A DNA stretch of 64,000 nucleotides from an uncultured Candidatus Saccharibacteria bacterium (GTDB lineage Bacteria > Patescibacteriota > Minisyncoccia > Phycocordibacterales > UBA9973): positions 18,407 to 82,406 of the forward strand of contig CAYHBR010000001.1 of assembly GCA_964354985.1 (NCBI GenBank), in the 5' to 3' direction. Shown piece after piece: positions 20,576-52,428 of the stretch (position 1 is its first letter; every line of letters starts with the position of its first letter). The position numbers and the translations under genes were made by a program. Below the pieces are notes generated by a model, which worked only from the letters and a program-made list of their open reading frames with translations, ran no database searches and was not told the origin of the DNA.

Positions 20576-21562
20576 TTATTGTAATGTTAATTCTTGCCTT
20601 ATCTTATATCCATTACCATGTTTCAGAAAACCCAAATATGATTGGACTATGTTTTCTTTTCTACCACTTTTCTGAATACACTTCCACATTCTTCGTTTAG
20701 TTACCGTTCGGAGCACTTTATGCCTATGGAAATGAACCCAGCCGAGAAAATCCACGCCAGAAGCCAAGGTTTTTATAAAAACTTTGTCGGGGTGCAGAGA
20801 TAGCTTCAAATTTTCGGTCAAAAAAACTGATATCTGGGACAAGATGGTTTCAAGACTTTTCTTGTCTTGTGACAAAAAGACAAAATCATCAGCGTATCTG
20901 ATGTAGTGTCTTGCTTTCAGCTTATGCTTCACGAACTGGTCAAACTCATTCATATAAATATTTACTAGGATTTGAGAAGTAAGGTTGCCGAGTGGTAAGC
21001 CTTTACCTTTTTCTATTGAATGAAAGCTCATAATAATTTTGGACAATAACCATAGGATATTTTGGTCAGGGATATAACTTGTCATAATTTTAGTTAGCAC
21101 CTCTTGGTCTATCGAAGCAAAAAACTTTCTGATGTCACATTTCAAAACCCAGACTGTCTTTGTATTATTTTTTGAAACGATATTTGAAAAAGCCTCAAAT
21201 CTACTCATCGCCTTGTGTGTTCCTTTTCCTTTTCTACAAGAGAAAGAATCGGAAATAAATGTCTTGTCGAAAAATGGGTATAACTTACGATAAAGTGCAC
21301 GGTGAAGCAACCTATCTCGCACGCAAGCTTTGTGTATACTCCTGGGTTTTGGATCTGAAATATTAAAAGCTTTGTACGGTGAATGTAAATATGTTTTATT
21401 GTAAAGATCATTGTGAAGCGCAATAATATTACCCATAAGGTTTCTCTGAAATAATTGAACATCTTTTCTTTGTCTCTTCCCTTTTACAAATTCACCCCAT
21501 GCTTCAAGCAAATTTTCAAGCGATATGATATCTTGGTATGTATGATCGAATTTAATTCTCAT
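20576..21562 (-). CDS. DGR reverse transcriptase (RT-1)
   Basis: 328 aa. Group-II-like fingers/palm with YADD (RYADDFVF). Motif 4 reads GLPLGNLTSQILVNIY, the DGR hallmark, not the group II intron QGxxxSP. There is no En domain. An adjacent TR/VR pair is present. Confidence 0.85.
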   Translation of the reverse strand: MRIKFDHTYQDIISLENLLEAWGEFVKGKRQRKDVQLFQRNLMGNIIALHNDLYNKTYLHSPYKAFNISDPKPRSIHKACVRDRLLHRALYRKLYPFFDKTFISDSFSCRKGKGTHKAMSRFEAFSNIVSKNNTKTVWVLKCDIRKFFASIDQEVLTKIMTSYIPDQNILWLLSKIIMSFHSIEKGKGLPLGNLTSQILVNIYMNEFDQFVKHKLKARHYIRYADDFVFLSQDKKSLETILSQISVFLTENLKLSLHPDKVFIKTLASGVDFLGWVHFHRHKVLRTVTKRRMWKCIQKSGRKENIVQSYLGFLKHGNGYKIRQELTLQ

Positions 21563-21575
21563 TCCTTAAATATTA

Positions 21576-21585
21576 CCCCCCCCCC
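21576..21585. repeat. C10 homopolymer (G10 on the RT coding strand) about 14 nt upstream of the RT-1 ATG
   Basis: cccccccccc seen directly. The same arrangement recurs upstream of RT-2. Confidence 0.9.
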
Positions 21586-21616
21586 GAGCACTTTTACCAG
21601 TTCTAGGCAGTTTTAA

Positions 21617-21940
21617 AAATCTATATATTTTTGGTACGCTATTTATCAAATATTACCAAAAGCACACAGGCACACTCTGGGACAAAGGATTGACACGCTA
21701 TTTATTGAAAGTATTGAAGCAATTTCAATTGCCAGTTTTTTATCACGACAAGAAAAGCAACCATATGTTCGTGTTGCTATTAGAAAAATCGACACTTTAA
21801 AAGTGTTACTCATGATACTCTGGGAAACCAAATCTATAGACGATAAAAAATACATCGCCCTCTCGGTAAAGCTCGAAGAAATTGGAAAGATGCTCGGCGG
21901 CTGGAATGGACAATTAGCAAAACAAAACTCTCCCAAATAG
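21617..21940 (+). CDS. Avd-like accessory protein (four-helix-bundle / 23S rRNA IVS protein family), plus-strand, with no canonical ATG at the head of the frame
   Basis: A 107-codon open frame ending ..ALSVKLEEIGKMLGGWNGQLAKQNSPK. It is collinear with the plus-strand ORF at 47638..47961 (KLEEVGKMFGGW), and the differences between them are mostly synonymous. The ...ELxxQL...KLEEVGKML.G motif is typical of Avd/IVS proteins. Confidence 0.55.
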   Translation, partial: KSIYFWYAIYQILPKAHRHTLGQRIDTLFIESIEAISIASFLSRQEKQPYVRVAIRKIDTLKVLLMILWETKSIDDKKYIALSVKLEEIGKMLGGWNGQLAKQNSPK

Positions 21941-21960
21941 AGGGAGAGAAATGAAGAGAG

Positions 21961-22087
21961 TTGCGAAACGGCAAACGCGAACCCGTTCTCACGATTCCAC
22001 CTGTTATCAGGCTTGTCATAGTACGCATTGAGCCAACGACCATCGTCGTTACGGTTCGCGTTGAGCAAGTTAGGATCGCCATCGGAA
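21961..22087 (-). repeat. DGR-1 template repeat (TR-1); the ORF-track ORF 21646..22068 is a non-coding artefact of it
   Basis: 127 bp aligning to 22424..22550. About 15 mismatches, all at plus-strand T in this copy (A in the minus sense) against C or A in the other copy. Confidence 0.85.
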
Positions 22088-22342
22088 CGCGCGAGATATC
22101 ATCCGTGCCACCACCCTTTGAGTTCTCTCAGGATTGTATTTTATTCGGCATCGCAATGCCTCAATGTCTCGCGCCAAGTATCTTCGTTTTTGCAGGTTAC
22201 ATGCACTACTCTATCCGAAACCATGATCGCGGATACACTCAATGCAAGGATACTGGGTTCGGTAGCGCCCAACCGTGATCGTGCGCATATTCACCTACTG
22301 CCATCGGCAATTATATCGTATTTTATATTTTATGAAAAAAAT

Positions 22343-22370
22343 AGTCCCCGATTTAAAAAATCGAGGACTA
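22343..22370. other. Hairpin downstream of the target-1 stop (AGTCCcCGATTT-aa-AAATCGaGGACT). A second small palindrome, AGAACTgaAGTTCT, is at 22385-22398, immediately 3' of the VR
   Basis: Inverted repeats seen directly. DGR VRs are commonly followed by a stem-loop. Confidence 0.45.
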
Positions 22371-22405
22371 AGGACTAAATGCAAAGAACTGAAGTTCTGA
22401 GCATC

Positions 22406-23029
22406 TTAATTTTGAGTACTAACTTGCGAAACGGCAAACGCGAACCCGCCCTCACGATCCCACCTGCTATCAGGCTCGCCATAGTACGCAAAGAGCCAAC
22501 GACCACCGCCGAAACGGTCCGCGCTGAGCAAGTTAGGATCGCCACCGGAATCCTTGATCGGTTCGTGCATAGCAACGATCCAGATAAGCCCCATTGCTTC
22601 GATCTCCTCGTCTGTGAACTTTTCACGGATGAGACATGCGATCTCAGCGTTTGGTGTTTCCAATTTGCGATTGGCAGCTTCGCTACGGATCTTCTTAGTG
22701 ATACGGTTGTTGTCTTCGAACAGCATCCCTTTGAGTACCGCAACTTCGGTTGTTATTCCAGAAGTAGGCTTGAAATCTTTTGAAAGTAACACACTCTTAG
22801 CATAATCGCTGAGGCGGTATCCTTTTTTCTCAAGACGCACAATCCATTCTGCCCCGGTAGCGCCGTCAGAAATGACATTGAAGTAAATTACTCCATCTTT
22901 TTCTGTCCAGCTCCTTGCCGGTTCTGCAATAGTGATTTCACCACGAAGGAATCTATTAACTCCTTCTTCTCCACCAAGTTTGTTCCATACGGCTTCTACT
23001 CGGCCAAATGTAATATCAGGATATTTCAT
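22406..23029 (-). CDS. DGR-1 target (variable) protein, 207 aa, with a C-terminal CLec-like variable region (VR-1 at 22424..22550)
   Basis: The C-terminus ..RFGGGRWLFAYYGEPDSRWDREGGFAFAVSQ.. is encoded by VR-1. Residues 1-207 are homologous to the C-terminal ~200 aa of the 613-aa target at 48482..50323. Confidence 0.8.
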   Translation of the reverse strand: MKYPDITFGRVEAVWNKLGGEEGVNRFLRGEITIAEPARSWTEKDGVIYFNVISDGATGAEWIVRLEKKGYRLSDYAKSVLLSKDFKPTSGITTEVAVLKGMLFEDNNRITKKIRSEAANRKLETPNAEIACLIREKFTDEEIEAMGLIWIVAMHEPIKDSGGDPNLLSADRFGGGRWLFAYYGEPDSRWDREGGFAFAVSQVSTQN

Positions 23030-34000: not shown

Positions 34001-37000
34001 CCAGCATTACTGTTCTTAATGTTTAATTGTAAATAATTATTAACATCACCATATCCGCCGATTATATTGTATGAGGTACTTCCTGAAGGCATCACAACTT
34101 TCAAACGCTCTGGACTAATTGGATCAAAGATATCAGAACCGATCGCAAGATTTCCATTATTATCAATTATAAATGGAGATGTATCACTCGATGAATCATC
34201 TACTCGAAAACTATTTCCATTTCCCAAATTTGAAACAAATAACGGCATTGAAGCAGACGAAGCTAATGTTGTTGCTTTAACTATTGATGCCGTGCTATTT
34301 GCAGTCGATGCGATATTTTCACCAAAAGTAATTCCAGACTGACCGCTAGTTGCAAGTGACCAATTCCACACTTGTCCCAAATCCCCATTGTTGATTGTGT
34401 TTGTTGCAAGTGCTTCTGTTAGAGACGAAAGATGTGTTGCTCCATTAAATCCCCCGGAACAAGTAAGGACTCCAACTGTTCCATCTACACTACATCCAGT
34501 TGAGCCATAACCACCCATAAGATTGAGAGTACCAGATGCGCCCGGAGCACCAATATTTACGGTTGTTGCTGATCCTCCAATATTTAAAGCTGTGGCATTT
34601 GTATTAAAAAGATTTCCTGTTGCGCTTGTAGTAGAAATCGTTCCGCCATTTATTGCGGAGTTTGAAGCAGTGGTAAATAAACCGCTTGAATTGACTGACC
34701 AATTTGCAGAATTTAAAGAAAGAGAATCAAGACCACTTCCCAATGAAATAGTATCCGCAAGAGTATCATCTGTCCCTACATTAATAACGTTACCAGCATT
34801 TCCTGTTCCAATAGATATTGTTTTTCCACTTGTTCCTGTACCAAGATTAACCGCACCCGTAGAACCAGAGTCAAGATTGAGAGCACCTGTTGTTCCTGAG
34901 GTTATTGAAAGAGCTGAGCCAGAAGCTGAAGTAATAGCGAGAGTGCTTCCGCCAGCGAGAGTTGTTGCACCTGTGCCTGTCAGTGTTGCGCTTCCTGCAG
35001 AAACTCCGAAACGAGTACTACCGCCGGTAATAAAGTTTAAACCTTGAGCGTCTGTGGTTCCGAGAGAAGCGGTTGTTCCGAATTGATTGCCACCTTGTAT
35101 ATAAGCAAACCCCGAAAGTGTTCCGATTGTCGCAGGTAATACCACAATGCGCCAGCGACTTATAGCTGAATCATATTCAAGACCGATAGACACTCCTGCC
35201 GGAACAGTTTGATTTAAACTAGATGCCGTTACAATGCGATTGATATCCGTAGAACTTAAACTCTCGTTAACAAGTGTTACTGCAAAACTTGAAGCATTCA
35301 TTATACGGATTTGTTTTCCATCTGCTCCCCCAGTTATTCCCGTGAAAGTAGCTACGCCCAGTCCTGTATAACGGAAAAGATAGCCGGATCCAAAATCAAC
35401 ATCATTATGCGAACCTGTTGTTGCATAATCAGTTCCTTTTGGTGTGATAAAATCTCCTGAAACAGTCAAGTTGCCACTTAGAGTTTTTGCACCCGATATT
35501 GTCTGCGTTCCGCTTGTTACAAGTCCTCTGTTTGTTGCAGAGGCATCTGGAATATTCAATGTAAGAGTTCCTCCGAGCGAAGTCGGTGAACCTGAAATAT
35601 TTGCGTCTGTTCCGGATGTTCCTAGTGTTAAACCAATAGTTGAATTTACTAATTTATTATTTGCAATCGTCCCAGTAACAATATCGCCATTGACGATAGA
35701 GCCGGCGAGATTGAGTTTACTATATGCAACTGATGCACTTGCTGAAAGATCTCCGTCTACAATCGTTCCGTCTAATATTTTGCCTGTAGTAATTGCCCCA
35801 GTGCCAATAGTAATAGCACCAGCATTACTGACAGTTGCGTCGCCCGATGCTGTAACAAAAGTTGGAACACCAGAAACATTGGCGACCAGAAACTGACCCG
35901 AAGAACCTGCTGTAGTGGCAGAAAGAGCGCTCGTTCCATTGCCATAAAGTAAACCTTTTGTTGTAAATGTCCCTGATCCAGTTCCACCTCGCGCGACAGA
36001 AAGATTTCCGGAAGTAATAGCTCCGACATCGAGGGATGTTGTGCCGGCAGCGGTCAATCTACCTTGTGCGTCCACTGTAAAAGTTGGGACCAAAGTACTA
36101 GAACCATAGTCACCTAAAGTGACAGCAGTATTATTTAAAGCGAAAGTAATATTCCCCGAACCAATAAGCCTGTTCGTAAGTGTTCCACTCAATCCAACTC
36201 CAGTGCCTGCGAGCAGGTCACCGTTACCTGTATTTAACAAGCAAGTTGGACAATCAATATTTCCAGTAGTGGCTGAATAACTTATTGGTCCAACACCAGC
36301 TATTGAATTCCTCGCACGGGCATTTGTAAAATATTGATTTGTCCCTTCAGAAATATTACTTGTTGTTAAGCTTACCGCGCCAGTTAGGCCATTTACACTA
36401 GCAACATTTGTTCCCTGTTGAATACGATCCCAAGTTGCACCGTTGTTTAAAATCCAATCCCCAACCGCCCAAGTTGAATTGCCATCTATAGATGTGCTTC
36501 CTGCGACACTTACAATAAATAAATCTCCTGCAATATCAGGTAGTCCATTTTCTAGCCCACCACTAGCAAGAGGCGGTGTATTGGTGTCTGCATCCCAAAC
36601 TCCATCATATTTTAATGAACCAGTAATTGAGCTAGGTAATAATGAAGTATTTATCTTACCACCAACATCAAGAAGAGATATCCAAGAAAGATCGCCCGCA
36701 AGAACTGCGTGGTTGTCAGCAGTACCTGTCCCTAAGTCCGCAGGAACGATTGAACGAAAAGTGGGATTAGTGGAAACGCCATCAGTCGGTCCAAGTAAAA
36801 AATTGTTAGCAGCAACAATTTCTGAAAATACACCGCCACCTTTACATTCAAAGATAGTGCCGTTCCAGCTAAGCCTTTCGTTACTAGCACAAGTTGGGAC
36901 ATTTACTTTTAAGTCTGTCCCTGAAAAAATTAAACCATTACCGATGCTTATTTCTGAAGTATTATCTGATGACCCAGTTGGATTTCCAAGCAATTTACTA

Positions 37001-37605
37001 GCGCTAACACTTGGTAGTTTTGCAAAAGTGACGCTACCATTTAGAATTTTTGAAGAAGTAATAGCATTGCTTACAATAGAAAATGCGCCGGCACTACTCA
37101 TTGAGGCATCACCCGAAACGGTAACTTGGCTCGCCAAGTTTGAACCATCGCCGACAAGTATTTTCCCTGACGACAAAGAAGGTGAGAGTTTGTTATTAAA
37201 TGTCGTCCAATCTGTAGCCGAAAGCAATCCTCTTTTTATAGAAGAGGCAGAAGGAAAATTGAAAGTGTGAATATCTGAGCCGGAAACAATATTAAAATCG
37301 GTGCCGGTTGTCCCTGTGGTAAATGTTTGAGTAGAACCACTTTGACTGTTTAGAATTAAACTGGTTGGTATTATTCCGCAACTAGGACTTCCTGCGGTAC
37401 AATCTGGCTCTAGTGTAACTCCGGGCAAATACAGGGTTGCGTTGGCTATTCGTGGAGCTATTAGACTAAGACCAAAAGTAGATAGAATTAAAATAAAAAT
37501 TCCAAACATAGAAAAAACCGATTTGCGGTTTTGGATAAACCGATAATGAACCAAGTTGGAAATGACAAATTTCTTGAAAGATTTTTCTTTCATTTGACTA
37601 CACAC
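28018..37605 (-). CDS. Giant surface protein (3195 aa): an N-terminal signal/anchor, Gly/Thr/Ser/Ala-rich repetitive beta-solenoid-like modules, a C-terminal globular region and a Pro/Thr/Val-rich tail
   Basis: One uninterrupted ORF. N-terminal hydrophobic segment (FSMFGIFILILSTFGLSLIAP). Pervasive GxT/GS repeats. Four copies of a FRCY..G.W.DC module. ~250-bp exact internal DNA repeats. Only spurious antisense ORFs overlap it. Confidence 0.85.
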   Translation of the reverse strand: MCSQMKEKSFKKFVISNLVHYRFIQNRKSVFSMFGIFILILSTFGLSLIAPRIANATLYLPGVTLEPDCTAGSPSCGIIPTSLILNSQSGSTQTFTTGTTGTDFNIVSGSDIHTFNFPSASSIKRGLLSATDWTTFNNKLSPSLSSGKILVGDGSNLASQVTVSGDASMSSAGAFSIVSNAITSSKILNGSVTFAKLPSVSASKLLGNPTGSSDNTSEISIGNGLIFSGTDLKVNVPTCASNERLSWNGTIFECKGGGVFSEIVAANNFLLGPTDGVSTNPTFRSIVPADLGTGTADNHAVLAGDLSWISLLDVGGKINTSLLPSSITGSLKYDGVWDADTNTPPLASGGLENGLPDIAGDLFIVSVAGSTSIDGNSTWAVGDWILNNGATWDRIQQGTNVASVNGLTGAVSLTTSNISEGTNQYFTNARARNSIAGVGPISYSATTGNIDCPTCLLNTGNGDLLAGTGVGLSGTLTNRLIGSGNITFALNNTAVTLGDYGSSTLVPTFTVDAQGRLTAAGTTSLDVGAITSGNLSVARGGTGSGTFTTKGLLYGNGTSALSATTAGSSGQFLVANVSGVPTFVTASGDATVSNAGAITIGTGAITTGKILDGTIVDGDLSASASVAYSKLNLAGSIVNGDIVTGTIANNKLVNSTIGLTLGTSGTDANISGSPTSLGGTLTLNIPDASATNRGLVTSGTQTISGAKTLSGNLTVSGDFITPKGTDYATTGSHNDVDFGSGYLFRYTGLGVATFTGITGGADGKQIRIMNASSFAVTLVNESLSSTDINRIVTASSLNQTVPAGVSIGLEYDSAISRWRIVVLPATIGTLSGFAYIQGGNQFGTTASLGTTDAQGLNFITGGSTRFGVSAGSATLTGTGATTLAGGSTLAITSASGSALSITSGTTGALNLDSGSTGAVNLGTGTSGKTISIGTGNAGNVINVGTDDTLADTISLGSGLDSLSLNSANWSVNSSGLFTTASNSAINGGTISTTSATGNLFNTNATALNIGGSATTVNIGAPGASGTLNLMGGYGSTGCSVDGTVGVLTCSGGFNGATHLSSLTEALATNTINNGDLGQVWNWSLATSGQSGITFGENIASTANSTASIVKATTLASSASMPLFVSNLGNGNSFRVDDSSSDTSPFIIDNNGNLAIGSDIFDPISPERLKVVMPSGSTSYNIIGGYGDVNNYLQLNIKNSNAGTNASSDIVATADNGSETSGYVDLGINSSGFTDASWSPAGKNDSYLVSRGVGGLGGDLVIGTNDTGTSLVFFTSGTDSSSERMRIMDDGLGNPLVGIGKAVPGSALDVKGELRLSGATSGYVGFAPPATAGSTTYTLPSADGALGEALITDGTGGLSWSPNTSKFQRVGTTISPLTAGDNLTTSGNIFTTATGTMTSAGLFTASAGLSAVGAVANINASSNFATNINTGTSSGAVNIGNSSAGAIGITSSSGLTFVGGAASSLSTTAGNITFQSAGGGATGVIKIGVGGAGSTTPDLLSLDVKSDSGDPAEGTNGSMYYNLNSNKFRCYTNGSWSDCDTTGGSTSLQSAYNSGGTITTAGAVDVGLVLTSGNFTASGAGAVSLTPTSASSFTSGGALTLTGGAASTWGTSTGDLVISVNGSATGIVHVGADDAPSATPDLFSLDQKSIASGTGDPTGDNGDMYFNAARDSFRCYEGGGWQDCGASVASAVTLQQAYVSNSTITTTSSSDLSILLSSGNFTATGTGAVNLTPTSASSFTSGGALTLTGGAASTWGTSTGTLSLQSAGTGTGKVQIGTGGAGSVTPDLFSLDVKSDTGDPVGGTNGSMYYNNSLGIFRCYVQGAWADCGISTMQGAYNNNATITTASSTPISFALASGDFNISGAGTISLGSTVSLPSLTASKVVFTDASKNLTSTGTVGVAQGGTGQTTVASAFSALSPVTTKGDLIIGNGVNSSTRLPVGVTNGFVLTTDSTQATGIKWSSIASSLTDALDFSELSDSMTVDANSTIDLAGKNLSITDSGAGNLSMSSGGTLTLSGAGTTSLSSGNGSSLSVSTGTTGILTLDSGTTGAINIGTNANAKNITIGNVTTSTAININSGSGGINLGGDVAITGGHTFTTGSGIMTNNANALTFVADDSILNMTGAGTLGINTTTNRPITTGSGLITAGGNLTVNGNSTFAGNFITPKGTDYATTGVQNNIVLASGGLIRYTGTDTATFTGIAGGVDGLYIRFMNASSFNLTISNESASSTAGNRIITGTSSDVIIPAGTTFCTQYDSGATRWRLGCTPTTATTINSFAFVQSGNAFGTSASLGTTDAQGLNFITGGSTRFGVSAGSATLTGTGATTLAGGSTLAITSASGSALSITSGTTGALNLDSGSTGAVNLGTGTSGKTIHIGDGVAVNTIVIGNGADDTFSLLSSGLNVSSAGALTGVASVSSIGAISTSGNISSTGSGTITSAGLLIGSAGITVSGGTASINTTGSSNTAIGNATGTFVVTSSGLNVSSAGAITGVSSIDTIGASATGLTFASAGTISSTTTSDITVDSGTTGAVNIGTGASGKTVTIGNITDGTTVNIYSGSGGITLLASTGGVVSIKSDTTGSVTLDSGTTGTVNIGNGNDSKTINIGTGSGNNAINIGTNGASTDTIVLGSTSDTLAIASTGLNLTTGGALTGVLSIDTIGTSATGLTFAGAGTITTTGANAITLEAGGTATSSKIQIGSITGKATPDLLVLDAGSADPAGINGGTYYNTTSNKFRCYENGAWKNCDTDGSKYIVKASPTTATSNSTVFLNDPELVFAMAANTTYYVQASINTNVSNATADLKYTFTTPAGATINLEGVNAISATSSAYCNIIASGTSCAIATTAVLTQRVFVHGYVTTAGTAGNLQFQFAQNVATVAASPVVNAGSFLMVTNSTNTGGADLAEIYNTSDVGLLPGELVRIDHSLESGVTRTTNTYDKEVLGVVSTQPGLILDDGKRIGSSQVAVALSGRVPMNVSVENGVIEPGDFLASSTTPGVAMKATEDGMVIGQALTSFGGEGVGQVIAFIKNTYSPGKYSMKDQSLLMGDISTTEGLVTLISDVQSEIAQNPISIIEAKVATGTKILTDFVSARVIAIRGYFDEVFAKKVHTEEICVKKSDGSEVCVTGDQMQTLLNNVNIPTADSTTSEVAPVPETIPTPDIGLVPDITAVQTEVPPEVVPTVTEVAPPLPVVDSPVPVQ
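30491..30741. repeat. ~250-bp exact intragenic direct repeat, copy 1 (copy 2 at 34820..35070)
   Basis: An identical string runs from tttttccacttgttcctgtaccaagattaaccgcacccgtag... to ...gtggttccgagagaagc at both positions. It encodes the duplicated segment ..STRFGVSAGSATLTGTGATTLAGGSTLAITSASGSALSITSGTTGALNLDSGSTGAVNLGTGTSGKT.. Confidence 0.9.
34820..35070. repeat. ~250-bp exact intragenic direct repeat, copy 2
   Basis: See copy 1. A second repeat pair (~70 bp near-exact, ~120 bp similar) lies at 32342..32460 and 32780..32898. Confidence 0.9.
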
Positions 37606-44358: not shown

Positions 44359-46500
44359 CTAGATATCCAGTTTCGCCATCTTGGCATTGGACTGGATGAA
44401 GCTCTTGCGTGGCGCAACTTCAGAGCCCATGAGTGTGTCGAAAACTTTGTTGGCTTCTTCGGCGTCGTCGATAGTAACTTGCTTGAGAATGCGCTTGGCA
44501 GGATCCATGGTTGTTTCCCAAAGCTCATCGGCATTCATTTCGCCGAGACCTTTGTAGCGTTGGATGTGGATTTTGTTGGCAGCTTTTTTGCCTTTTGCTT
44601 CGGTTTCTTCTTCGGTTTCATCGGCACCAGTGTCTCCTGAACCACCTGCCTCGTCGTCAAGGGCTTCTATTTCTTCTATCTCAACATCGCCTCCAGTTAT
44701 CTTGTTTTTTTCTTCATCTGAATATGCATAGGAAATCTGTTTGCCCTGTTTTATTTTATACAGCGGTGGCTGTGCGATGTAAACATAGCCGGCATCGATC
44801 ACACTTCGGAAATAACGGAACATAAGGGTCAAAATAAGTGTACGAATGTGCGCGCCGTCAACATCGGCATCGGTTGCCAGGATAATTTTGTGATAGCGAA
44901 TTTTCGAAATATCGAGCGTGTCGCCGATCGAAGTTCCCATCGCAATGACGAGATTTTTGATCTGCTCACTACCGAGCATGCGGTCGAGTCTGGCTCGTTC
45001 AACATTTAAAATTTTACCACGCAAAGGAAGCACGGCTTGCGTCTTTCGGTCGCGACCCATTTTGGCAGTACCGCCGGCCGAGTCTCCCTCTACAATGAAA
45101 ACTTCTGACTCACTGGCGTCTTTGCTCTGACAATCTGCGAGTTTGCCCGGAAGTGTCATGCCTTCAAGTGCGCCTTTGCGGAGAATAGAATCCTTGGCAG
45201 CTTTGGCGGCTTTGCGAGCGCGAAGTGCAAGAACGGCTTTGCCGATAATACCTTTGGCATCGTCAGGATTTTCTTCGAGGTACTGCTCGAAGGCTTCACC
45301 GAAAACTTTTTGGACTGCACCCTGTGCTTCGGTTGAACCGAGCTTGGCTTTGGTTTGACCTTCAAACTGGATTTCAGCAAGCTTGACGGAAATTATCGCA
45401 GTCAAACCTTCGAGTACATCGTCGCCGGTAAATCCACCATCGGCTTCTTTGAGTACAGAATTTTTCTTGGCGAAGCTGTTGACCAAACGAGTGAGCGCCA
45501 TTTTGAAACCAGCGACATGGGTTCCGCCTTCAGCTGTGTAGATATTGTTGGCAAATGGCATGAGCCTGTCTGCCATATCGTCGACATACTGGAGCGCAAC
45601 TTCAACGCCGACGCCATCGATTTCTTTTTCAACATAGAAAATTTTATCGTGAACAGGCTTGAGGTGCTTGTTGGTGAATTTGACGAGCGAAACGAGACCG
45701 CCTTCAAAAAAGAACGAGACGGATGGAAGTTCGAGGTCAAGGTCTTTGATCCAGTAAGTGTCAGTGTCGTCTATTGTTGCGCCTTTTTTTGAGACTGTTT
45801 TTTCATCATTATTTTTTTCATCACCGTACCCACGCGCGTCGACGATTTCTATACGAAGTGAACTTACCAAATATGCTTGCTGACGCAAATGGTTGACGAT
45901 TGTTTCAAAATTGAAAGTTGTATCTGGAAAAATAATACCGTCTGGCTGGAAAGTAATAATCGTACCGTTTTTCTTTGACGCGTCGACTTTTTTGACGGCA
46001 GCTTTTTTCTTGCCTTGCGAATATTCTTGGACAAACTTACCTCCTTCACGATGGACTTCAGCACGAGTATAAATAGAAAGTGCGTTGACGACAGAGGCGC
46101 CGACACCGTGCAAACCGCCAGAAACTTTGTAGCCAGATTCATCGCCACCAAATTTGCCGCCAGCGTGGAGTGTCGTCATGACAGTTTCAAGAGCCGAGAC
46201 TTTAGTTTTTGAGTGAATACCAGTTGGAATACCGCGACCGTTGTCGGCAACACGGATTTTGTTTCCCGGCAAAAGCACGACTTCGATACGATTACAAAAA
46301 CCACCCATGGCTTCGTCGCGCGAGTTGTCGAAAATTTCCCAAATGAGGTGATGCAGACCGTCAATGCCTGTCGTACCAATGTACATACCAGGGCGTTTGC
46401 GAACTGGTTCGAGACCTTCAAGGACGGAAATAGCCTCCGCACCGTAATTGCCTTTCTTAGTCTTTTCTTTGGTTTCTTTCTGTTCTGATTCTTTGGCCAT
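44359..46500 (-). CDS. gyrB: DNA gyrase subunit B
   Basis: GHKL ATPase motifs (..ILRKGALEG..), a Toprim region (VEGDSAGG) and the gyrB-specific C-terminal domain. Confidence 0.9.
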   Translation of the reverse strand: MAKESEQKETKEKTKKGNYGAEAISVLEGLEPVRKRPGMYIGTTGIDGLHHLIWEIFDNSRDEAMGGFCNRIEVVLLPGNKIRVADNGRGIPTGIHSKTKVSALETVMTTLHAGGKFGGDESGYKVSGGLHGVGASVVNALSIYTRAEVHREGGKFVQEYSQGKKKAAVKKVDASKKNGTIITFQPDGIIFPDTTFNFETIVNHLRQQAYLVSSLRIEIVDARGYGDEKNNDEKTVSKKGATIDDTDTYWIKDLDLELPSVSFFFEGGLVSLVKFTNKHLKPVHDKIFYVEKEIDGVGVEVALQYVDDMADRLMPFANNIYTAEGGTHVAGFKMALTRLVNSFAKKNSVLKEADGGFTGDDVLEGLTAIISVKLAEIQFEGQTKAKLGSTEAQGAVQKVFGEAFEQYLEENPDDAKGIIGKAVLALRARKAAKAAKDSILRKGALEGMTLPGKLADCQSKDASESEVFIVEGDSAGGTAKMGRDRKTQAVLPLRGKILNVERARLDRMLGSEQIKNLVIAMGTSIGDTLDISKIRYHKIILATDADVDGAHIRTLILTLMFRYFRSVIDAGYVYIAQPPLYKIKQGKQISYAYSDEEKNKITGGDVEIEEIEALDDEAGGSGDTGADETEEETEAKGKKAANKIHIQRYKGLGEMNADELWETTMDPAKRILKQVTIDDAEEANKVFDTLMGSEVAPRKSFIQSNAKMAKLDI

Positions 46501-46523
46501 ATATGACGATATTATAGCAGATT

Positions 46524-47567
46524 TTAGATGGAAATGCGAGGGATTTTAGGTGGAAATTGCTGGGTTTTTGGTCCGATTTTGGTGGGTTTTCTAAAATTAT
46601 ATATAATCGTTTGCTTAAGTCGATGAGTATTCCCATGACTAAGTAATCCAATATAAGATGTTGTAGTTGCACCTGATTGTCTCTGTCTTAAATTTCTGAA
46701 CATTCTCTTTTTGGTAGATGTCCTTGGCACTCGATGGTACGGGAAATGCACCCAACCGAGAAAATCCACACCTGAGGCAAATGTTTTTATAAATACCTTA
46801 TCAGGATGCAAGGATAGATTGAGTCTTGTCTCTAGAAATGCCGATATTTTTGGCAGAACATCTTCTAAGTATTTTTTGTCTTTATGAAGGATAACAAAAT
46901 CATCCGCATATCTGACGCAGTATGTAATTTTCAAATCTCTCTTAAGAAAGTGATCGAACTCGTTCATATAAATGTTCACTAAAAGTTGGCTCGTGAGATT
47001 ACCAAGAGGTAGTCCGACGCTGTGCCTGTCTTTTGTGTTGAAACTGCCGACAATCTCCTTGAAAAGCCGTATTATATCTTCATCTCCCATTCGGAGTTTC
47101 AAAATATCTTCCAAGATTCTGTGATCAATATTCGCAAAAAACTTTCTGATGTCGCATTTCAGCACCCACATAGTCTGCGTATGATTTTTAGAAACCTTAA
47201 GCGCATAGTTTCGAAATCTATCAAGCGCGCGGTGTGTGCCTTTGCCTCGACGACATGAGTACGAATCAAAAATAAATTTGGTGTCAAAATATGGATACAA
47301 AATCCTATAAATAGCATGGTGGAGAAGCCGATCGCGGACACTTGCCTTGTGAATGTCCCGAGGCTTTGGGTCGTTGATACGAAAAGCTTTGTACGGACCG
47401 TGACGGTATGTCTTGTCGACAAGTTCACGGTGAAGGGCAAGTATATTATCGGTTAGATGCACTGAAAATTGGGCGACATCTTTACGGTTCCGTTTTCCGC
47501 GCAGGAATTCTCGCCACGCAACAAGTAAGTTTTCCACCGAAATGATATTATTGTAGGTATGAATCAA
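46524..47567 (-). CDS. DGR reverse transcriptase (RT-2); the likely true start is the TTG at 47567, and the ORF-track N-terminal extension reads through the poly-G tract
   Basis: 348 aa, about 65% identical to RT-1. Same GLPLGNLTSQLLVNIY and YADD motifs. Homology with RT-1 begins at ..IHTYNNIISVENLL.. Confidence 0.85.
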   Translation of the reverse strand: MIHTYNNIISVENLLVAWREFLRGKRNRKDVAQFSVHLTDNILALHRELVDKTYRHGPYKAFRINDPKPRDIHKASVRDRLLHHAIYRILYPYFDTKFIFDSYSCRRGKGTHRALDRFRNYALKVSKNHTQTMWVLKCDIRKFFANIDHRILEDILKLRMGDEDIIRLFKEIVGSFNTKDRHSVGLPLGNLTSQLLVNIYMNEFDHFLKRDLKITYCVRYADDFVILHKDKKYLEDVLPKISAFLETRLNLSLHPDKVFIKTFASGVDFLGWVHFPYHRVPRTSTKKRMFRNLRQRQSGATTTSYIGLLSHGNTHRLKQTIIYNFRKPTKIGPKTQQFPPKIPRISI

Positions 47568-47577
47568 CCGACTAATA

Positions 47578-47587
47578 CCCCCCCCCC
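47578..47587. repeat. C10 homopolymer (G10 in the RT sense) about 10 nt upstream of the RT-2 start
   Basis: cccccccccc seen directly, in the same position as at RT-1. Confidence 0.9.
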
Positions 47588-47637
47588 GAATTTCGTACAG
47601 CAACGCCTCGATCCTGAGCAGGATCAAAGAGGGATAT

Positions 47638-47961
47638 TTGATTTGGGTTAGTATTGTTCCGCATATTGCTAAAGGTGCTCGCTATACGATAGGTTCACGA
47701 ATTGAGAATAAATTCCTCGACCTGCTTGAACTTTCATACATTGCTTATTTTATAGAAAAAGATAAGAAAGAGGGAAAAATCACACAATGCATTTTAATGT
47801 TGGATACACTAAAGTTTCTTGTTTCTGTTGCATGGGAGGGTAAACTGATTTCAAATGCACACTGCGAGAATGTGGCATTGAAACTCGAAGAAGTCGGCAA
47901 GATGTTTGGTGGTTGGAAGAAAAATCTCGCAAATCCCGAAAAGAAAAACCGCGATCTATAA
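47638..47961 (+). CDS. Avd-like accessory protein (four-helix bundle / 23S rRNA IVS protein family), TTG start, on the opposite strand from RT/TR/VR
   Basis: 107 aa ..IAKGARYTIGSRIENKFLDLLELSYIAYF...VALKLEEVGKMFGGWKKNL. Conserved with the locus-1 frame with synonymous third-position changes. The antisense ORF-track ORF 47745..48149 has a low-complexity, nonsense-like translation here. Confidence 0.65.
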   Translation: MIWVSIVPHIAKGARYTIGSRIENKFLDLLELSYIAYFIEKDKKEGKITQCILMLDTLKFLVSVAWEGKLISNAHCENVALKLEEVGKMFGGWKKNLANPEKKNRDL

Positions 47962-47994
47962 AAACTATAGCAGTCGCGGAAAAGAAAATAGTTT

Positions 47995-48123
47995 CGGAGA
48001 CGGAACACGAACTTGTTGTCCGGATTCCACTCATTACCCTGTTTCGCCCAATTGTTGTTCAGCCACAAACCATCACCGTCGCGTTTGAGATTGAAGACGT
48101 TCGAGTTACCGTCAGAGTCAGTA
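47995..48123 (-). repeat. DGR-2 template repeat (TR-2); the ORF-track ORF 47745..48149 is a non-coding artefact of it
   Basis: 129 bp aligning to 48498..48626. About 21 mismatches at TR adenines (plus-strand T against C/A/G in the VR) and a single non-A mismatch. Confidence 0.85.
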
Positions 48124-48481
48124 TTTGTGCGGCATGCCATCTGTGTCACTGCCGACTTAAGCGCACCATGTGCCAGAAGCCGTGCTGTATTGGTATGCGT
48201 GATCTAACCCAGTAGGCGATCCTGTTGGATCGAAATCACCCAGCGCGTCGCACCAAGTTTTTTCTTTTTAAAGACCTCTATGTAAATCCTCCGCGAAAAG
48301 CCGTAACCGTTCGCGCTCTCAATCCACACGAAGTAAATTGGTCTTGAAAAACCGTAGCCGTTCAATGAAACCAATCTAGAAATAGTATACCAAAAAAACT
48401 GAACTCGCTTCGCGAGTAAATGCCAAAGGGTCAAAGAACCCAAGAGTCAAAGAATCAGAAAAATACAAAGAAACAATTGGT

Positions 48482-50323
48482 CTAAGATTTAGACTTGCGG
48501 AGACGGAACACGAACTCGTAGCCCGGAGAACACACAAAACCCTGCGACGCCCAACTGTAGTACAGCCACAAACCAACACCGTCGCGTCCGAGAAAGAAGA
48601 CGTACGAGTCACCGTCAGAGTCAGTAATTTGCTTCATTCCAATACGCACCCATTCATTGAGGGGTTGATCTTTGTATTTGAGGCGATAATTCGGACCAGT
48701 ATCGGGTGGACATAATTCTAAACCAAGCTTTTGCGCTCGCTCAAATATTTGGTCAGTTGTGGCATTTGTCTTGAATCCAAGATCGGCGACAGTGAGGCGG
48801 ATGAGGGTGGCTTCTTCTTGATTCTTCCCTGGAATAAAGTCCGGGTTTTTCATCATGGATTTTGCGTAATCAGAAATGTTGATTTTAGCAGTCTCCATTT
48901 CGGAAATGAGCTGTTCTGCTGTCTTTCCGCCGATCACAATGTTCTCTCTGCGGATTTTCTTGTCAGGAAAAGACGTGTACACATGCTCAAGATTTTCCGG
49001 CAATTTTTGAAAGATTCCTGGCTCAAGCTGGCCAACATAGGCTTTGGTATTTTCGTCTATTTCGCTAGGTACGTGGGCAATTTGATCTTTACTGCAATCA
49101 AAAATGACGAGCATGTCTGCCTCGGTATTTCTGCCTGCGCGAAGTTCGGCAATACGCGGGTCGGTCTGGTAACCGAAACCTTCGATTGAGGAGTTTATTT
49201 CATACAAGAATATCAAATCGTCTTTATTGAACGGCTCTTCCTGTTCACGCTTCTGGTCGAGAGCAGTAAGCATTTTCATGTCATTGCTTTTCTTTCGGTA
49301 CGCATCTGCTTCACCACCAAAATCCTGGAGTTTTGTATCAAGCGCTTCCTGCATAATTGGCTCTACTCCCTGGTGCGGCAGAACACCCCGAACTTCGCCG
49401 ATTCGGTTATCGCCATCCATGCGGATGGCAAGACGAGGCTGGGTCGGCTCACCATTTGAGTCGTTCGTATAGAAAACATAGAAGTCGCCATTTTCGATTT
49501 GCGCTTCAGCAGTTGCCTGACCGGCAGTACACCAACCAGTACCCTTACCATCGAGCGAATCATATAATTTTTCAGCGGCGCCGTCTTCGCCTTGTTCATA
49601 TTTTTTCCATTCACCTTTGACTTCCTCGCGGTTCTCCATTGAAGCGGCGAGAGATTTTGAAATGAGTTCGGCGTATAAGCTCGGAAACTTTTGAGAAAAG
49701 GCTTCGCGGATCTCGGGTTCTTTGAGATTTTTATTATCCTCCTTAACTTTAAGATAAATGTCGGCGATTTGCGCCAACGGCTCACGGTAGATATCGGGGT
49801 ATGGTGCAACAGTACTATCGGTACGCTTTTTGAACTCGCCACGCTCTTTGTCGAATTGGGAAAGTTTGGTGATATTTTTCCAAACAAAGTATTTGAACCA
49901 TGCAGGATACATGGCATCGTCTGAAGTAAGGTAGTCCATCCATGAATCAAGTGATGCACGTTGATCTTCAATGGCAACATTCATCATCTGCTCGCGGACA
50001 TTTTCTGGTATTTCCTCTACCGATTGTCCTCGTTCGCGGGCAATGCGTTTCTGCAACTCAAAATATGATTCAGGAAAATTCTCCTTCTTTATGATGAACG
50101 CATCATAGATTTTATCGCGAAACATTTCGAGATTGCGTTCGCGTTTCTTTTCGTCAGGGTTGAGAAAAACATTCTCCAAACGATCCATATAAGCCTCAAT
50201 ACGCTCGGAAGGATCGTTAGGCATTTTTTCGCCAGTGTGACGTTCTTCTCGTACAACGGCTCGATTTACCTCAGGAGAAGTTTGGAGTTCTGGGCTCTTA
50301 ATGTGGAGTGGATGCTTTTCCAT
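48482..50323 (-). CDS. DGR-2 target (variable) protein, 613 aa, with a C-terminal CLec-like variable region (VR-2 at 48498..48626)
   Basis: The C-terminus ..DSDGDSYVFFLGRDGVGLWLYYSWASQGFVCSPGYEFVFRLRKSKS is encoded by VR-2. The C-terminal ~200 aa are homologous to the 207-aa DGR-1 target. Confidence 0.8.
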   Translation of the reverse strand: MEKHPLHIKSPELQTSPEVNRAVVREERHTGEKMPNDPSERIEAYMDRLENVFLNPDEKKRERNLEMFRDKIYDAFIIKKENFPESYFELQKRIARERGQSVEEIPENVREQMMNVAIEDQRASLDSWMDYLTSDDAMYPAWFKYFVWKNITKLSQFDKERGEFKKRTDSTVAPYPDIYREPLAQIADIYLKVKEDNKNLKEPEIREAFSQKFPSLYAELISKSLAASMENREEVKGEWKKYEQGEDGAAEKLYDSLDGKGTGWCTAGQATAEAQIENGDFYVFYTNDSNGEPTQPRLAIRMDGDNRIGEVRGVLPHQGVEPIMQEALDTKLQDFGGEADAYRKKSNDMKMLTALDQKREQEEPFNKDDLIFLYEINSSIEGFGYQTDPRIAELRAGRNTEADMLVIFDCSKDQIAHVPSEIDENTKAYVGQLEPGIFQKLPENLEHVYTSFPDKKIRRENIVIGGKTAEQLISEMETAKINISDYAKSMMKNPDFIPGKNQEEATLIRLTVADLGFKTNATTDQIFERAQKLGLELCPPDTGPNYRLKYKDQPLNEWVRIGMKQITDSDGDSYVFFLGRDGVGLWLYYSWASQGFVCSPGYEFVFRLRKSKS

Positions 50324-50378
50324 ATATGGTTCGTATTTTAGCAGATTTAGATGATAAAACGAAAATTTGGATCATGAT

Positions 50379-52415
50379 TTATCTCACCTCCCAACCTTTC
50401 ACTTTCAGCGCTTCAGTCACCTTTTGCATTATCGGCTCTATCTCAGCGTCGGTCAGCGTTTTATCGTTCGATTGAAAAACCGTTCGGAAAGCCACGCTCG
50501 TTTTTCCGTCTTTTGTAAATGTATCGAAAAGTCTCGGACCAGCCACGACAAGCTCGCCGGCATTTTCGCGGATAGTTGTAGCGACAGTTTCGGGGTCAGT
50601 CCCCTCGTTCACCCAAAGAGCAATGTCGCGAACAATGAAAGGATACGACGACCACATTTTGAATTGCCTTACAGTTCCACTTTTTCCATATTTTTTATTT
50701 ATGCCATTTATTGTTTTTTCAATTATGTTATTTTTCGGAAAAATATATTCGGTCGCTGAATGCTCTTTGGTTCCTTCTTCGAGTGTGCATTCTTGCACGC
50801 CTTTTTTGTCAGCCCAGGCAACATGGATTTCTTCGCCCTCGGTACTATCTTTTGGAAAAACCGTCCCGATTTCGAAAAGTTTAATTTCATCCATCTCAAG
50901 TAGTGCGGAATTTTTAACATTAAGGTCATAGGCTTCTTTGAGACCGTCGCTGAGGTTTGTGCGAAGCGCTGATTTATCTTTGGCAGCATAAGCAACTTCT
51001 ATTTCACCTTTCTTGCGGAATGCGTAGGTGAGCACTTCGGAAAAACCAGTCTCAAGAAAATGCGCGCGGGTCATCATTATTTTTGCACTTGTGTCGTTGA
51101 GTTTTGGTGAGAAAACGGCCATGCTTTGACCTACAGAGTTTTCTGTCGCACGCGTAATATCTGGCAAAATGCCGGCGATTTTTTCATAACCATAAACACG
51201 ACCGATTTCATCGGCGATATCGTGCGGACCAGTGAGGTCAGGGCGATTGGAAGGAACTGTTAGCACGAAAGAATTTTTTTTATTTGCATCATTCACGACA
51301 TTTTCATTATTTACTCCGTTGTTACCGCCACGCGTATATATATAACTATACTGTTTCAAAATCTTTTCGGTTTCATCTCCAGAAATATTCGCGCCGAGCA
51401 ATTTATTTATTTCAAAAACAGAAAATGAAACTGTTTTCGGTGAAGCCTGCAAAGATGGCGCTGGATAAACATCAACAATTTCTTCGAAAACTGCGTCGGG
51501 ACACATTTCCAAAATAATTGACGAGAGTTCGAGCATGGCATACGGCGCAAGCTCTGGTGTGAGGTCATTTTCAAAACGCTTTGCGGCATCAGTAAGTAGA
51601 CCAAGCCTGCGTGCAGTTTTGCGAACGGTGACGGGCTCAAAATTGGCGACTTCCAAAACGATGTCTGTGGTGTTTGCATCAACCTCAGCTTTTGTGCCAC
51701 CTTTGACACCAGCGATAGCGAGCACGGCATTGCCACTATCACGCGGACCACTCGTTATCACGAGCTCGTCGTTTTTGAGTGTCGTATATGCATCACTACC
51801 GAGAAGAGTCACGCCTTCGACTGGGTGAATAATATTTCTAGCTACTATTTTTTGTGAGCCATCTGATTCGGTTTCAATTTTCCGTGTATCAAAAGCATGT
51901 GTCGGCTGACCAGTATTGAAAAGCACGAGGTTTGTGGCATCGACAATGTTGTTGATCGAGCGCTGGCCGATTGATTCGAGATGCGTGACAACCCAAGCTG
52001 GCGATGGACCGATTTTTATATTGCGAACAATGCGTCCCATATAGCGACGAGCTCGATCGTCTTCTATTTCAACAACGAGTTTCGTCGCGACTGATTCGGG
52101 AACTTTATAGTGCGGAGTCGGATCGTTATATGGAATATTGAGCAAACCAGAAAGTTCGCGCGCGACACCCATGTGCGAAAGCAAGTCGTGTGCACGGTCT
52201 GGCAAAACTTTCAAATCGAAAATCCAATCCTTTTGCATTTTTGTTTCGCCGTTTTTGGTGCCGTTTTTGGTGCCGTTTTTTTCATCTGAAATCTTTTGCT
52301 CGATCTCGTCGATCGATTCTATTTCGCAAACATGAAAAGTAAAAACCTCCGCCAATTTTTCGGGAGCCGGAATTTCGGGAACATACCATTTGAGCCAGTT
52401 GTAGGAGATTTTCAT
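50379..52415 (-). CDS. pheT: Phenylalanyl-tRNA synthetase beta subunit (likely start MKISYNWLKWYVP)
   Basis: A canonical PheT N-terminus, a B3/4 domain, and a C-terminal ferredoxin-fold anticodon-binding domain. Confidence 0.85.
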   Translation of the reverse strand: MKISYNWLKWYVPEIPAPEKLAEVFTFHVCEIESIDEIEQKISDEKNGTKNGTKNGETKMQKDWIFDLKVLPDRAHDLLSHMGVARELSGLLNIPYNDPTPHYKVPESVATKLVVEIEDDRARRYMGRIVRNIKIGPSPAWVVTHLESIGQRSINNIVDATNLVLFNTGQPTHAFDTRKIETESDGSQKIVARNIIHPVEGVTLLGSDAYTTLKNDELVITSGPRDSGNAVLAIAGVKGGTKAEVDANTTDIVLEVANFEPVTVRKTARRLGLLTDAAKRFENDLTPELAPYAMLELSSIILEMCPDAVFEEIVDVYPAPSLQASPKTVSFSVFEINKLLGANISGDETEKILKQYSYIYTRGGNNGVNNENVVNDANKKNSFVLTVPSNRPDLTGPHDIADEIGRVYGYEKIAGILPDITRATENSVGQSMAVFSPKLNDTSAKIMMTRAHFLETGFSEVLTYAFRKKGEIEVAYAAKDKSALRTNLSDGLKEAYDLNVKNSALLEMDEIKLFEIGTVFPKDSTEGEEIHVAWADKKGVQECTLEEGTKEHSATEYIFPKNNIIEKTINGINKKYGKSGTVRQFKMWSSYPFIVRDIALWVNEGTDPETVATTIRENAGELVVAGPRLFDTFTKDGKTSVAFRTVFQSNDKTLTDAEIEPIMQKVTEALKVKGWEVR

Positions 52416-52428
52416 AATATATATAAAA

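Follow-up and report, generated by a model that had tools for sequence, protein, structure and literature searches.

The 64,000-nt window analysed here (positions 18,407 to 82,406 of the forward strand of contig CAYHBR010000001.1, from an uncultured Candidatus Saccharibacteria bacterium) contains, between 46524 and 50323, a cassette composed of a reverse transcriptase (RT) gene, a small gene on the opposite strand, and two direct repeats, the template repeat (TR) and the variable repeat (VR), which very probably constitute a diversity-generating retroelement (DGR). The genes flanking the cassette encode GyrB, PheT, and PheS according to Pfam, in agreement with an earlier reading of this DNA made from its letters and open reading frames (ORFs), hereafter the sequence-only reading, which had placed it between pheST and gyrB. 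That reading had also described an RT, an opposite-strand Avd-like gene, and a TR/VR pair as a complete DGR, and all of these parts were located, as listed below in the order of the minus strand:

48482..50323, minus strand: target gene of 613 aa, with an unannotated N-terminal module of ~460 aa and a putatively C-type-lectin-like C-terminal domain of ~150 aa; VR corresponds to codons 566-609
48495..48629, minus strand: VR, including the A-free 18-nt stretch GTTCGTGTTCCGTCTCCG at 48515-48498, which resembles an initiation of mutagenic homing (IMH) site
48403..48452, minus strand: 3' flank of the target, with (C/T)TTTGR repeats at ~48452-48423, then a CTCGC-GAAG-GCGAG hairpin at 48417-48403 and a T-run
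48127..48392, minus strand: predicted structured 5' leader of the TR transcript, with a -10-like box, SL1, P2 around SL2, and P3
47992..48126, minus strand: TR, non-coding, an ungapped repeat of VR
47938..47979, minus strand: hairpin (47979-47949) followed by a U-tract (47948-47938)
47638..47961, plus strand: Avd accessory protein of 107 aa, convergent with TR and divergent from the RT
47578..47587, minus strand: G10 simple-sequence tract, within the 70 nt between the divergent avd and RT starts
46524..47627, minus strand: DGR RT, with a maximal ORF of 367 aa from TTG 47627; TTG 47567 gives 347 aa

VR is located within the 3' end of the coding target and ends 13 nt short of the stop codon in the 613-aa ORF, and the non-coding TR is found near the RT, at a distance of 365-425 nt that is set by the choice of the RT start codon; this is the layout of a DGR. 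The sole ORF covering TR (47745-48149, minus strand) is merely TR read in the VR frame, as the sequence-only reading had it, and continues antisense through avd.

TR and VR form a direct repeat without gaps at an offset of 503 (47992-48126 and 48495-48629), with 82% identity over 135 nt, and homology falls to background directly beyond these limits. Read in the minus sense, both copies differ at 24 of the 135 positions, and the TR copy carries A at 23 of them (A>T 13, A>G 7, A>C 3), while its 29 C and 31 T are all unchanged in VR. TR has 40 A in its 135 positions, and a hypergeometric test gives P=3.5e-14 for 23 or more of the 24 mismatches hitting A. Moreover, the gene copy does not show A at any of the 24 mismatches and, therefore, the direction of transfer is fixed from TR to VR. 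The narrower limits of the sequence-only reading (129 nt, 47995-48123 and 48498-48626) contain 22 mismatches, 21 of them on TR A, exactly as it claimed, although the true repeat extends to 135 nt; tabulated by TR base, the mismatches are concentrated on A rather than spread over the four bases. In the VR frame, TR presents 37 adenines over the 44 VR-aligned codons, distributed as 14, 20, and 3 over codon positions 1, 2, and 3 and including 10 AAY codons, and a codon calculation on these adenines gives ~10^20 possible protein variants. The A-free 18-nt stretch (61% GC) is identical in TR and VR, and beyond it CCGAAAC stands against CCGCAAG.

The most direct evidence of diversification is provided by contig L081 (ENA ERZ4201065), which aligns with window positions 44462-52423 over 7,963 bp with 99.7% identity. 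TR is identical in both, and 22 of the 22 substitutions fall in VR, between 48516 and 48621, with 21 at TR-adenine sites and the 22nd at 48530. Outside VR, there are zero substitutions over ~7,800 bp, and the sequences differ further only by an indel where the alignment ends and by the length of the G-run at 47578-47587 (G10 in the window, G11 in L081). This contrast between 22 VR differences and none in the surrounding sequence points to last homing events that were very recent relative to the point-mutation divergence of the window and L081. In effect, the comparison amounts to a population test of VR hypervariability at contig level.

The same pattern is found in the homolog family of the 613-aa target, which comprises more than 1,800 proteins, the best 120 of them all at least 76% identical. 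The nearest homolog (P0002, encoded on L081) differs at 15 residues, all within VR. In an alignment of 106 homologs, the mean entropy is 2.38 bits at the 21 VR codons whose TR codon has A in its first or second position, in contrast to 0.47 bits at the 22 VR codons without TR A (Mann-Whitney p=2e-6) and 0.46 bits in the rest of the protein, and AAY-templated VR codons show 11-17 residue types. Family-wide variation within VR is confined to codons with TR adenines. Neither the window target protein nor P0001 has an exact match in the contig index.

The RT belongs to Pfam RVT_1 (6e-24) and contains LGNLTSQ (motif 4) and YADD, the two motifs to which the sequence-only reading had drawn attention. 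Its best match in the PDB is the 328-aa chain of 8ub7, which aligns over 288 residues at 142 bits and E 1.8e-40, whereas group II intron and retron RTs in the PDB attain at best ~1e-21 and no more than 80 bits. The catalytic and template-contact residues of 8ub7 align at positions 181/182, 187, and 215/216, which are the numbers given for such residues in the RT of Bordetella phage, bRT (Handa et al., bioRxiv 10.1101/2023.10.23.563531) and, therefore, 8ub7 is bRT. The Avd protein reaches 45.8 bits with Pfam bAvd, above the cutoff of 40, and matches the PHROG 'Avd protein of DGR' (9e-15); its gene starts with TTG, with a Shine-Dalgarno-like AGAGGGA upstream. The opposite-strand Avd-like gene of the sequence-only reading is thus supported at the bAvd threshold, and its strand is the norm for DGRs of the Candidate Phyla Radiation (CPR).

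We are highly confident that the cassette is a chromosomal, complete, and recently active DGR of the Patescibacteria (CPR) type, with the order target/VR-leader-TR-(avd)-RT. A DGR with a TR-(avd)-RT layout in a member of the Patescibacteria is expected biology and no surprise for a specialist, and this cassette is of value because it is so clean, is evidently active, and can be compared with many others. An ordinary partial gene duplication, or a gene-conversion tract, that happens to lie beside an unrelated RT of group II intron, retron, or defence type has a negligible probability and is effectively already refuted. It is true that the group II intron RT/maturase model TIGR04416 is the best NCBIfam model for this RT and that NCBIfam models of retrons and of defence-associated RTs (DRT) give weak matches, but the former scores 153 bits, far under its cutoff of 300, and the latter are all far below theirs, whereas PHROG 1423 is matched at 3e-108. 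The RT, with 347-367 aa, has no maturase or endonuclease extensions, and a search of 46400-50400 against Rfam returns neither an intron or retron RNA nor any other family at E<=1. All this, together with the proximity to 8ub7, is in line with the exclusion of a group II intron in the sequence-only reading. Furthermore, the A bias of the mismatches has the correct polarity, and the Avd-TR-RT linkage recurs in dozens of loci.

Two further alternatives accept a DGR but question its recent action. The VR differences between the window and L081 could have arisen by recombination among pre-existing alleles or tandem target copies rather than by new retrohoming, as a sister lineage with up to three tandem 613-aa targets, able to exchange VR segments, might suggest. 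Nevertheless, the target gene is present in a single copy in the window, all 21 A-site differences fall at TR adenines with the TR-encoded bases at non-A sites untouched, and recombination would merely shuffle variants that a DGR had made earlier; we regard this alternative as very unlikely. Somewhat less remote, though still improbable, is a fossil DGR, formerly active and now silent, with a frozen VR. The intact and conserved state of RT, Avd, TR, leader, and hairpin speaks against it, as do the 22 VR differences (21 at A sites) accumulated while ~7,800 bp outside VR remained without substitutions in the comparison with L081. In its favour, the data speak to past and not to present activity, the RT start is ambiguous and hinges on a slippery G-run, a canonical start codon is missing from the avd of a second cassette in the window, and 35 of 80 related loci have a target with no avd or RT in view.

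Several points count against a complete and recently active DGR, or against the manner in which it is proposed to work. The comparison between the window and L081 places retrohoming only after the split of the lineages, and not in the present. A single TR/VR mismatch does not involve A, namely G>T at TR 48027 and VR 48530, by which TGG (Trp598, kept in 100 of the 106 homologs) becomes TGT (Cys) in the window; Cys is also found in four other homologs, and L081 has the TR-encoded G at 48530 where the window has T. Avd reaches only 54.7 bits with the NCBIfam equivalog DivGenRetAVD, under the cutoff of 80. IMH and its TR counterpart IMH* are putative and definable here by sequence only. The roles given below to the leader, its helix P3, and the hairpin are analogies. 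Moreover, if the hairpin and U-tract form a real terminator, the RNA would be devoid of the long 3' spacer needed by the Bordetella-phage system, and the priming mode would then be unexplained.

The genomic distribution of this system was addressed by a scan of species-representative genomes, which yielded 80 loci encoding the target family in metagenome-assembled genomes of Paceibacteria, Microgenomates, Magasanikbacteria, Falkowbacteria, Moranbacteria, and Berkelbacteria. The pheT/gyrB synteny around the cassette is not kept, among these 80 loci, beyond the window's own strain. In about 40 of them, a TR with 86-100% of its mismatches on A adjoins avd and RT, and the TR-avd-RT module has either the orientation of the window or is inverted as a whole. 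Conversely, the target appears with neither avd nor RT in view in 35 loci. Many loci (L001, L004, L008, L022, L042, L058, and L066, among others) have a diversified-looking VR while both avd and RT are missing from the 5 kb to each side, so that the target can occur independently of the retroelement or be supplied in trans. Two loci, L019 (TR at 2203-2339) and L020 (TR at 5313-5441), keep an A-biased TR, the leader, and the hairpin, and tblastn finds no avd or RT within 5 kb; these would be either orphan TRs served in trans or companions of a very divergent RT.

In four loci of a sister lineage (L082, L083, L085, and L086), whose targets are ~88% identical, the order is RT on the minus strand followed by Avd and target on the plus strand. 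Up to three tandem 613-aa targets are present there, interleaved with extra Avd-like ORFs, with a serine recombinase beside the RT, and an N6_N4 methyltransferase and a ResIII helicase downstream. Such a neighbourhood suggests a mobile or rearranging context.

The window itself contains a second cassette, of which the main components are:

20576..23029: second cassette (DGR-1), with RT at 20576-21562, TR at 21961-22087, and VR at 22424-22550, all on the minus strand; the target is a 207-aa ORF

All of its 15 TR/VR mismatches fall on A (P=1.3e-11), and it is 59%, 38%, and 29% identical to the cassette studied here in RT, Avd, and the C-terminal target module, respectively. Its Avd frame (21617-21940, opposite strand) is open and scores 46.3 bits with Pfam bAvd. 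However, this frame lacks any ATG, GTG, or TTG before 21803, an arrangement that points to a non-canonical start or to dependence on the Avd of the other cassette.

Between the target and the RT, the 355 nt from the target stop to TR are conserved across lineages. This segment includes a near-invariant extended -10-like box, TGGTATACT, at 48392-48384, and a leader RNA of ~250 nt for which RNAalifold, applied to 34 cassettes, gives 46 pairs, of which 42 are backed by compensatory double changes. In these cassettes, pairing is found in 92.7% of cells, in contrast to 37-48% when the partners are slid by 1-3 columns; likewise, double-change cells amount to 367 versus 59-88 in the slid controls, and none of 500 shuffles attains any of the observed covariation measures. 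The leader has no match in Rfam 15 at E<=1. Its helical elements, all on the minus strand, are:

48365..48344, minus strand: SL1
48328..48281, minus strand: P2, enclosing SL2 at 48315-48292
48253..48127, minus strand: P3, a 12-bp long-range helix whose 3' strand finishes 1 nt before TR

SL1 and SL2 have a CGGYUAYGG loop in common. The leader copy of the cassette has an insertion of ~26 nt in one loop, and a second leader copy is found in the window at 22078-22330, also on the minus strand.

On the other side of TR, 12 nt past its end, there is a hairpin (47979-47949) with a free energy of -11.5 kcal/mol, followed by UUUUUCUUUUC and overlapping the avd stop codon. A strict pattern, which matches background sequence 0.0074 times per 100 nt, detects hairpin and U-tract in 37 of 41 cassettes, and they are visible in the other four. 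Among the cassettes, the stem falls into six or more sequence classes that compensate one another. This conservation was measured by a scan for pattern and energy against background; when the region 3' of TR was aligned with MAFFT, RNAalifold returned no pairs, variable loop lengths having broken the register. The structure looks like an intrinsic terminator. In addition, its position fits that of an Avd-binding stem-loop, for which it is a candidate; Handa et al. predicted such stem-loops just 3' of TR in 207 of 278 DGRs with Avd, among them CPR members. Pairing of the U-tract with the GAAA/GCAA end of TR as a template:primer duplex was also considered but not adopted, since the apparent co-change (GAAA with UUUC, GCAA with UUGU) is found in 2-3 lineages only, is confounded by the C-terminal codons of Avd on the opposite strand, and does not hold for L065, L069, and L071, where TR ends in GCCAG.

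The target itself is followed by three to four (C/T)TTTGR repeats with a spacing of ~9-10 nt (TTTG[AG] has a background of 0.48 per 100 nt) and, ~80 nt after VR, by the GC-rich GAAG-loop hairpin and T-run, which a terminator scan marks as terminator-like. Where the TR-(avd)-RT module has the inverse orientation, both the repeats and this hairpin remain with VR; they may serve homing as a cis element, or only terminate transcription.

Based on these elements, a working scheme can be proposed for the cassette. A promoter with the extended -10 box (~48392-48384) would drive the synthesis of a non-coding RNA of ~440 nt that begins with the structured leader (250 nt) and continues through TR (135 nt) and a pyrimidine-rich linker to the hairpin and its U-tract. 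RT and Avd would bind this RNA and copy TR into cDNA, with misincorporation opposite adenines. Synthesis would begin near the A-free 3' end of TR and probably stop at P3, which adjoins TR on its 5' side much as the 'cPRT Stop' duplex is located just upstream of the TR in Bordetella phage (Handa et al.); by this analogy, P3 is a candidate barrier setting the 5' limit of cDNA synthesis. The cDNA would finally replace VR, with the invariant A-free 18-nt stretch serving as IMH-like 3' homology, and ~21 codons of the C-type-lectin-like domain would be recoded, for ~10^20 possible proteins. Upstream of TRs, only 40 nt were inspected by Handa et al., and the RNA requirements of CPR DGRs have so far been extrapolated from a phage only. 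The covarying leader and the TR-abutting helix provide testable predictions on the bounds of the cDNA in the most DGR-rich bacterial group.

With regard to known systems, the cassette conforms to architecture B3, in which the order is TR-(avd)-RT, avd lies on the reverse strand, and to which 90% of a set of CPR DGRs belong (Wu et al. 2018, PMC5758913), and Patescibacteria DGRs form the dedicated DGR clade 2 (Roux et al. 2021, PMC8144416). TR (47992-48126, minus), avd (47638-47961, plus), and RT (46524-47627, minus) are arranged in this way on a chromosome, and the homologs that carry source names are labelled Patescibacteria, Paceibacterota, and similar. Clade 2 targets are typically devoid of transmembrane segments and known domains, for a reason to be established (Roux et al. 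2021), and the window target likewise shows neither a transmembrane segment nor a recognizable domain. No fundamental difference from B3 and clade 2 DGRs was found in the window cassette.

In comparison with the mtd-avd-TR-brt cassette of Bordetella phage BPP-1, the likeness includes a homologous RT with shared xGxLTSQ and Y[AM]DD motifs, Avd, A-specific transfer from TR to VR, AAY-rich TR codons, and a C-terminal VR in a domain that is, in the window, putatively C-type-lectin-like, together with a stem-loop that closely follows TR and a helix that adjoins its 5' edge. However, the window cassette has a hairpin with a U-tract 3' of TR and a large structured RNA 5' of it, its host is a bacterial chromosome, its target is not a tail fibre, and the GC-rich inverted repeat lies ~80 nt past VR instead of a few nt as in BPP-1. 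The literature searched, which left out Paul et al. 2017, yielded no description of the family of the 613-aa target, the covarying leader of 250 nt, the hairpin that resembles a terminator, or the G/(GA)n tract described next. The leads offered by the cassette are clean activity evidence, a large unannotated target family, a covarying leader RNA, and a position-specific variable repeat.

This last feature lies next to the RT start. The only runs of G or C of at least 10 nt in the 64 kb are the G10 tract at 47578-47587 and an equivalent G10 in the second cassette (21576-21585). In 676 kb of related loci, 26 of the 30 tracts of at least eight G or at least six GA units fall within 150 nt of an RT start, and three of the four remaining ones occur just after avd at a contig end. 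Between identical 40-nt flanks, tract length varies from G10 in the window to G11 in L081, and reaches 11, 12, 14, 14, and 18 in the sister lineage, where two contigs break at the tract; individual differences in length could include homopolymer sequencing error. RT gene calls shift with tract length (367, 366, 351, and 347 aa), and on L081, where G11 interrupts the upstream frame, the RT is called as 347 aa. Homology between the window RT and that of the second cassette starts at residue 23 and, because of this, the RT start is probably TTG 47567 (347 aa), with the G-tract then located in the 5' untranslated region or promoter.

These features suggest that the G/(GA)n tract may be a slipped-strand phase switch of RT/avd expression. 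A literature search combining terms for phase variation and repeats with terms for DGRs returned no top-ranked paper mentioning DGRs and, if true, a contingency-type repeat controlling hypermutation would be a new regulatory idea for DGRs. By extension, CPR-type DGRs might use the ~250-nt structured leader 5' of TR as a scaffold for RT and Avd instead of a 3' spacer, and a hypermutable G/(GA)n tract as an on/off phase switch in subpopulations. This combined proposal is tentative, and we consider it rather doubtful at present.

The target protein has no match in Pfam, NCBIfam, PADLOC, PHROGs, or PDB sequences, and a profile of its C-terminal module retrieved nothing meaningful from the PDB. It has no hydrophobic segment (maximum Kyte-Doolittle 19-residue mean of 0.63). 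The family of its N-terminal 460 aa comprises 1,979 representatives at the 50% cluster level, 1,078 of them at E<=1e-30, in proteins of ~450-1,585 aa, and Pfam detects no above-threshold domain in nine long relatives of this module. A PcfJ-like identity of the central beta domain was discarded, as no profile favoured it.

A first AlphaFold2 model built on close homologs only was poor, with a predicted local distance difference test (pLDDT) score of 69.8 and an uninformative Foldseek search, whereas a second one based on a diverse alignment reached a pLDDT of 88.6 and a predicted template-modelling score of 0.64, with the C-terminal 150 aa at pLDDT 93-97. Foldseek with this second model placed eight Mincle carbohydrate-recognition domains on top (probability 0.35-0.72, E 0.19-0.56) and gave no match for the N-terminal part; over the fold searches as a whole, the matches to C-type-lectin-like proteins include the DGR variable protein TvpA of Treponema denticola. 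A C-type-lectin-like VR domain is, thus, a consistent reading of the model at modest scores. The sequence-only reading had seen in the target C-terminus a VR of C-type-lectin fold, a proposal that agrees with the Mincle and TvpA fold matches, at their modest scores, and finds no counterpart at the level of sequence. In contrast to TvpA and the FGE-sulfatase-fold proteins, the window target has no Pfam FGE-sulfatase or DUF1566 sequence match, and its domain is fused to a 460-aa cytoplasmic-looking module that is found only in relatives without Pfam annotation. The target is one of those CPR DGR targets without membrane segment or known domain that constitute an open question for Roux et al., and a large N-terminal family without Pfam annotation now has a good structural model.

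Elsewhere in the window, a 3,195-aa ORF on the minus strand (28018-37605) is full of internal direct repeats, which form families of 55-300 nt between 29823 and 35485, and probably encodes a giant repetitive surface protein.

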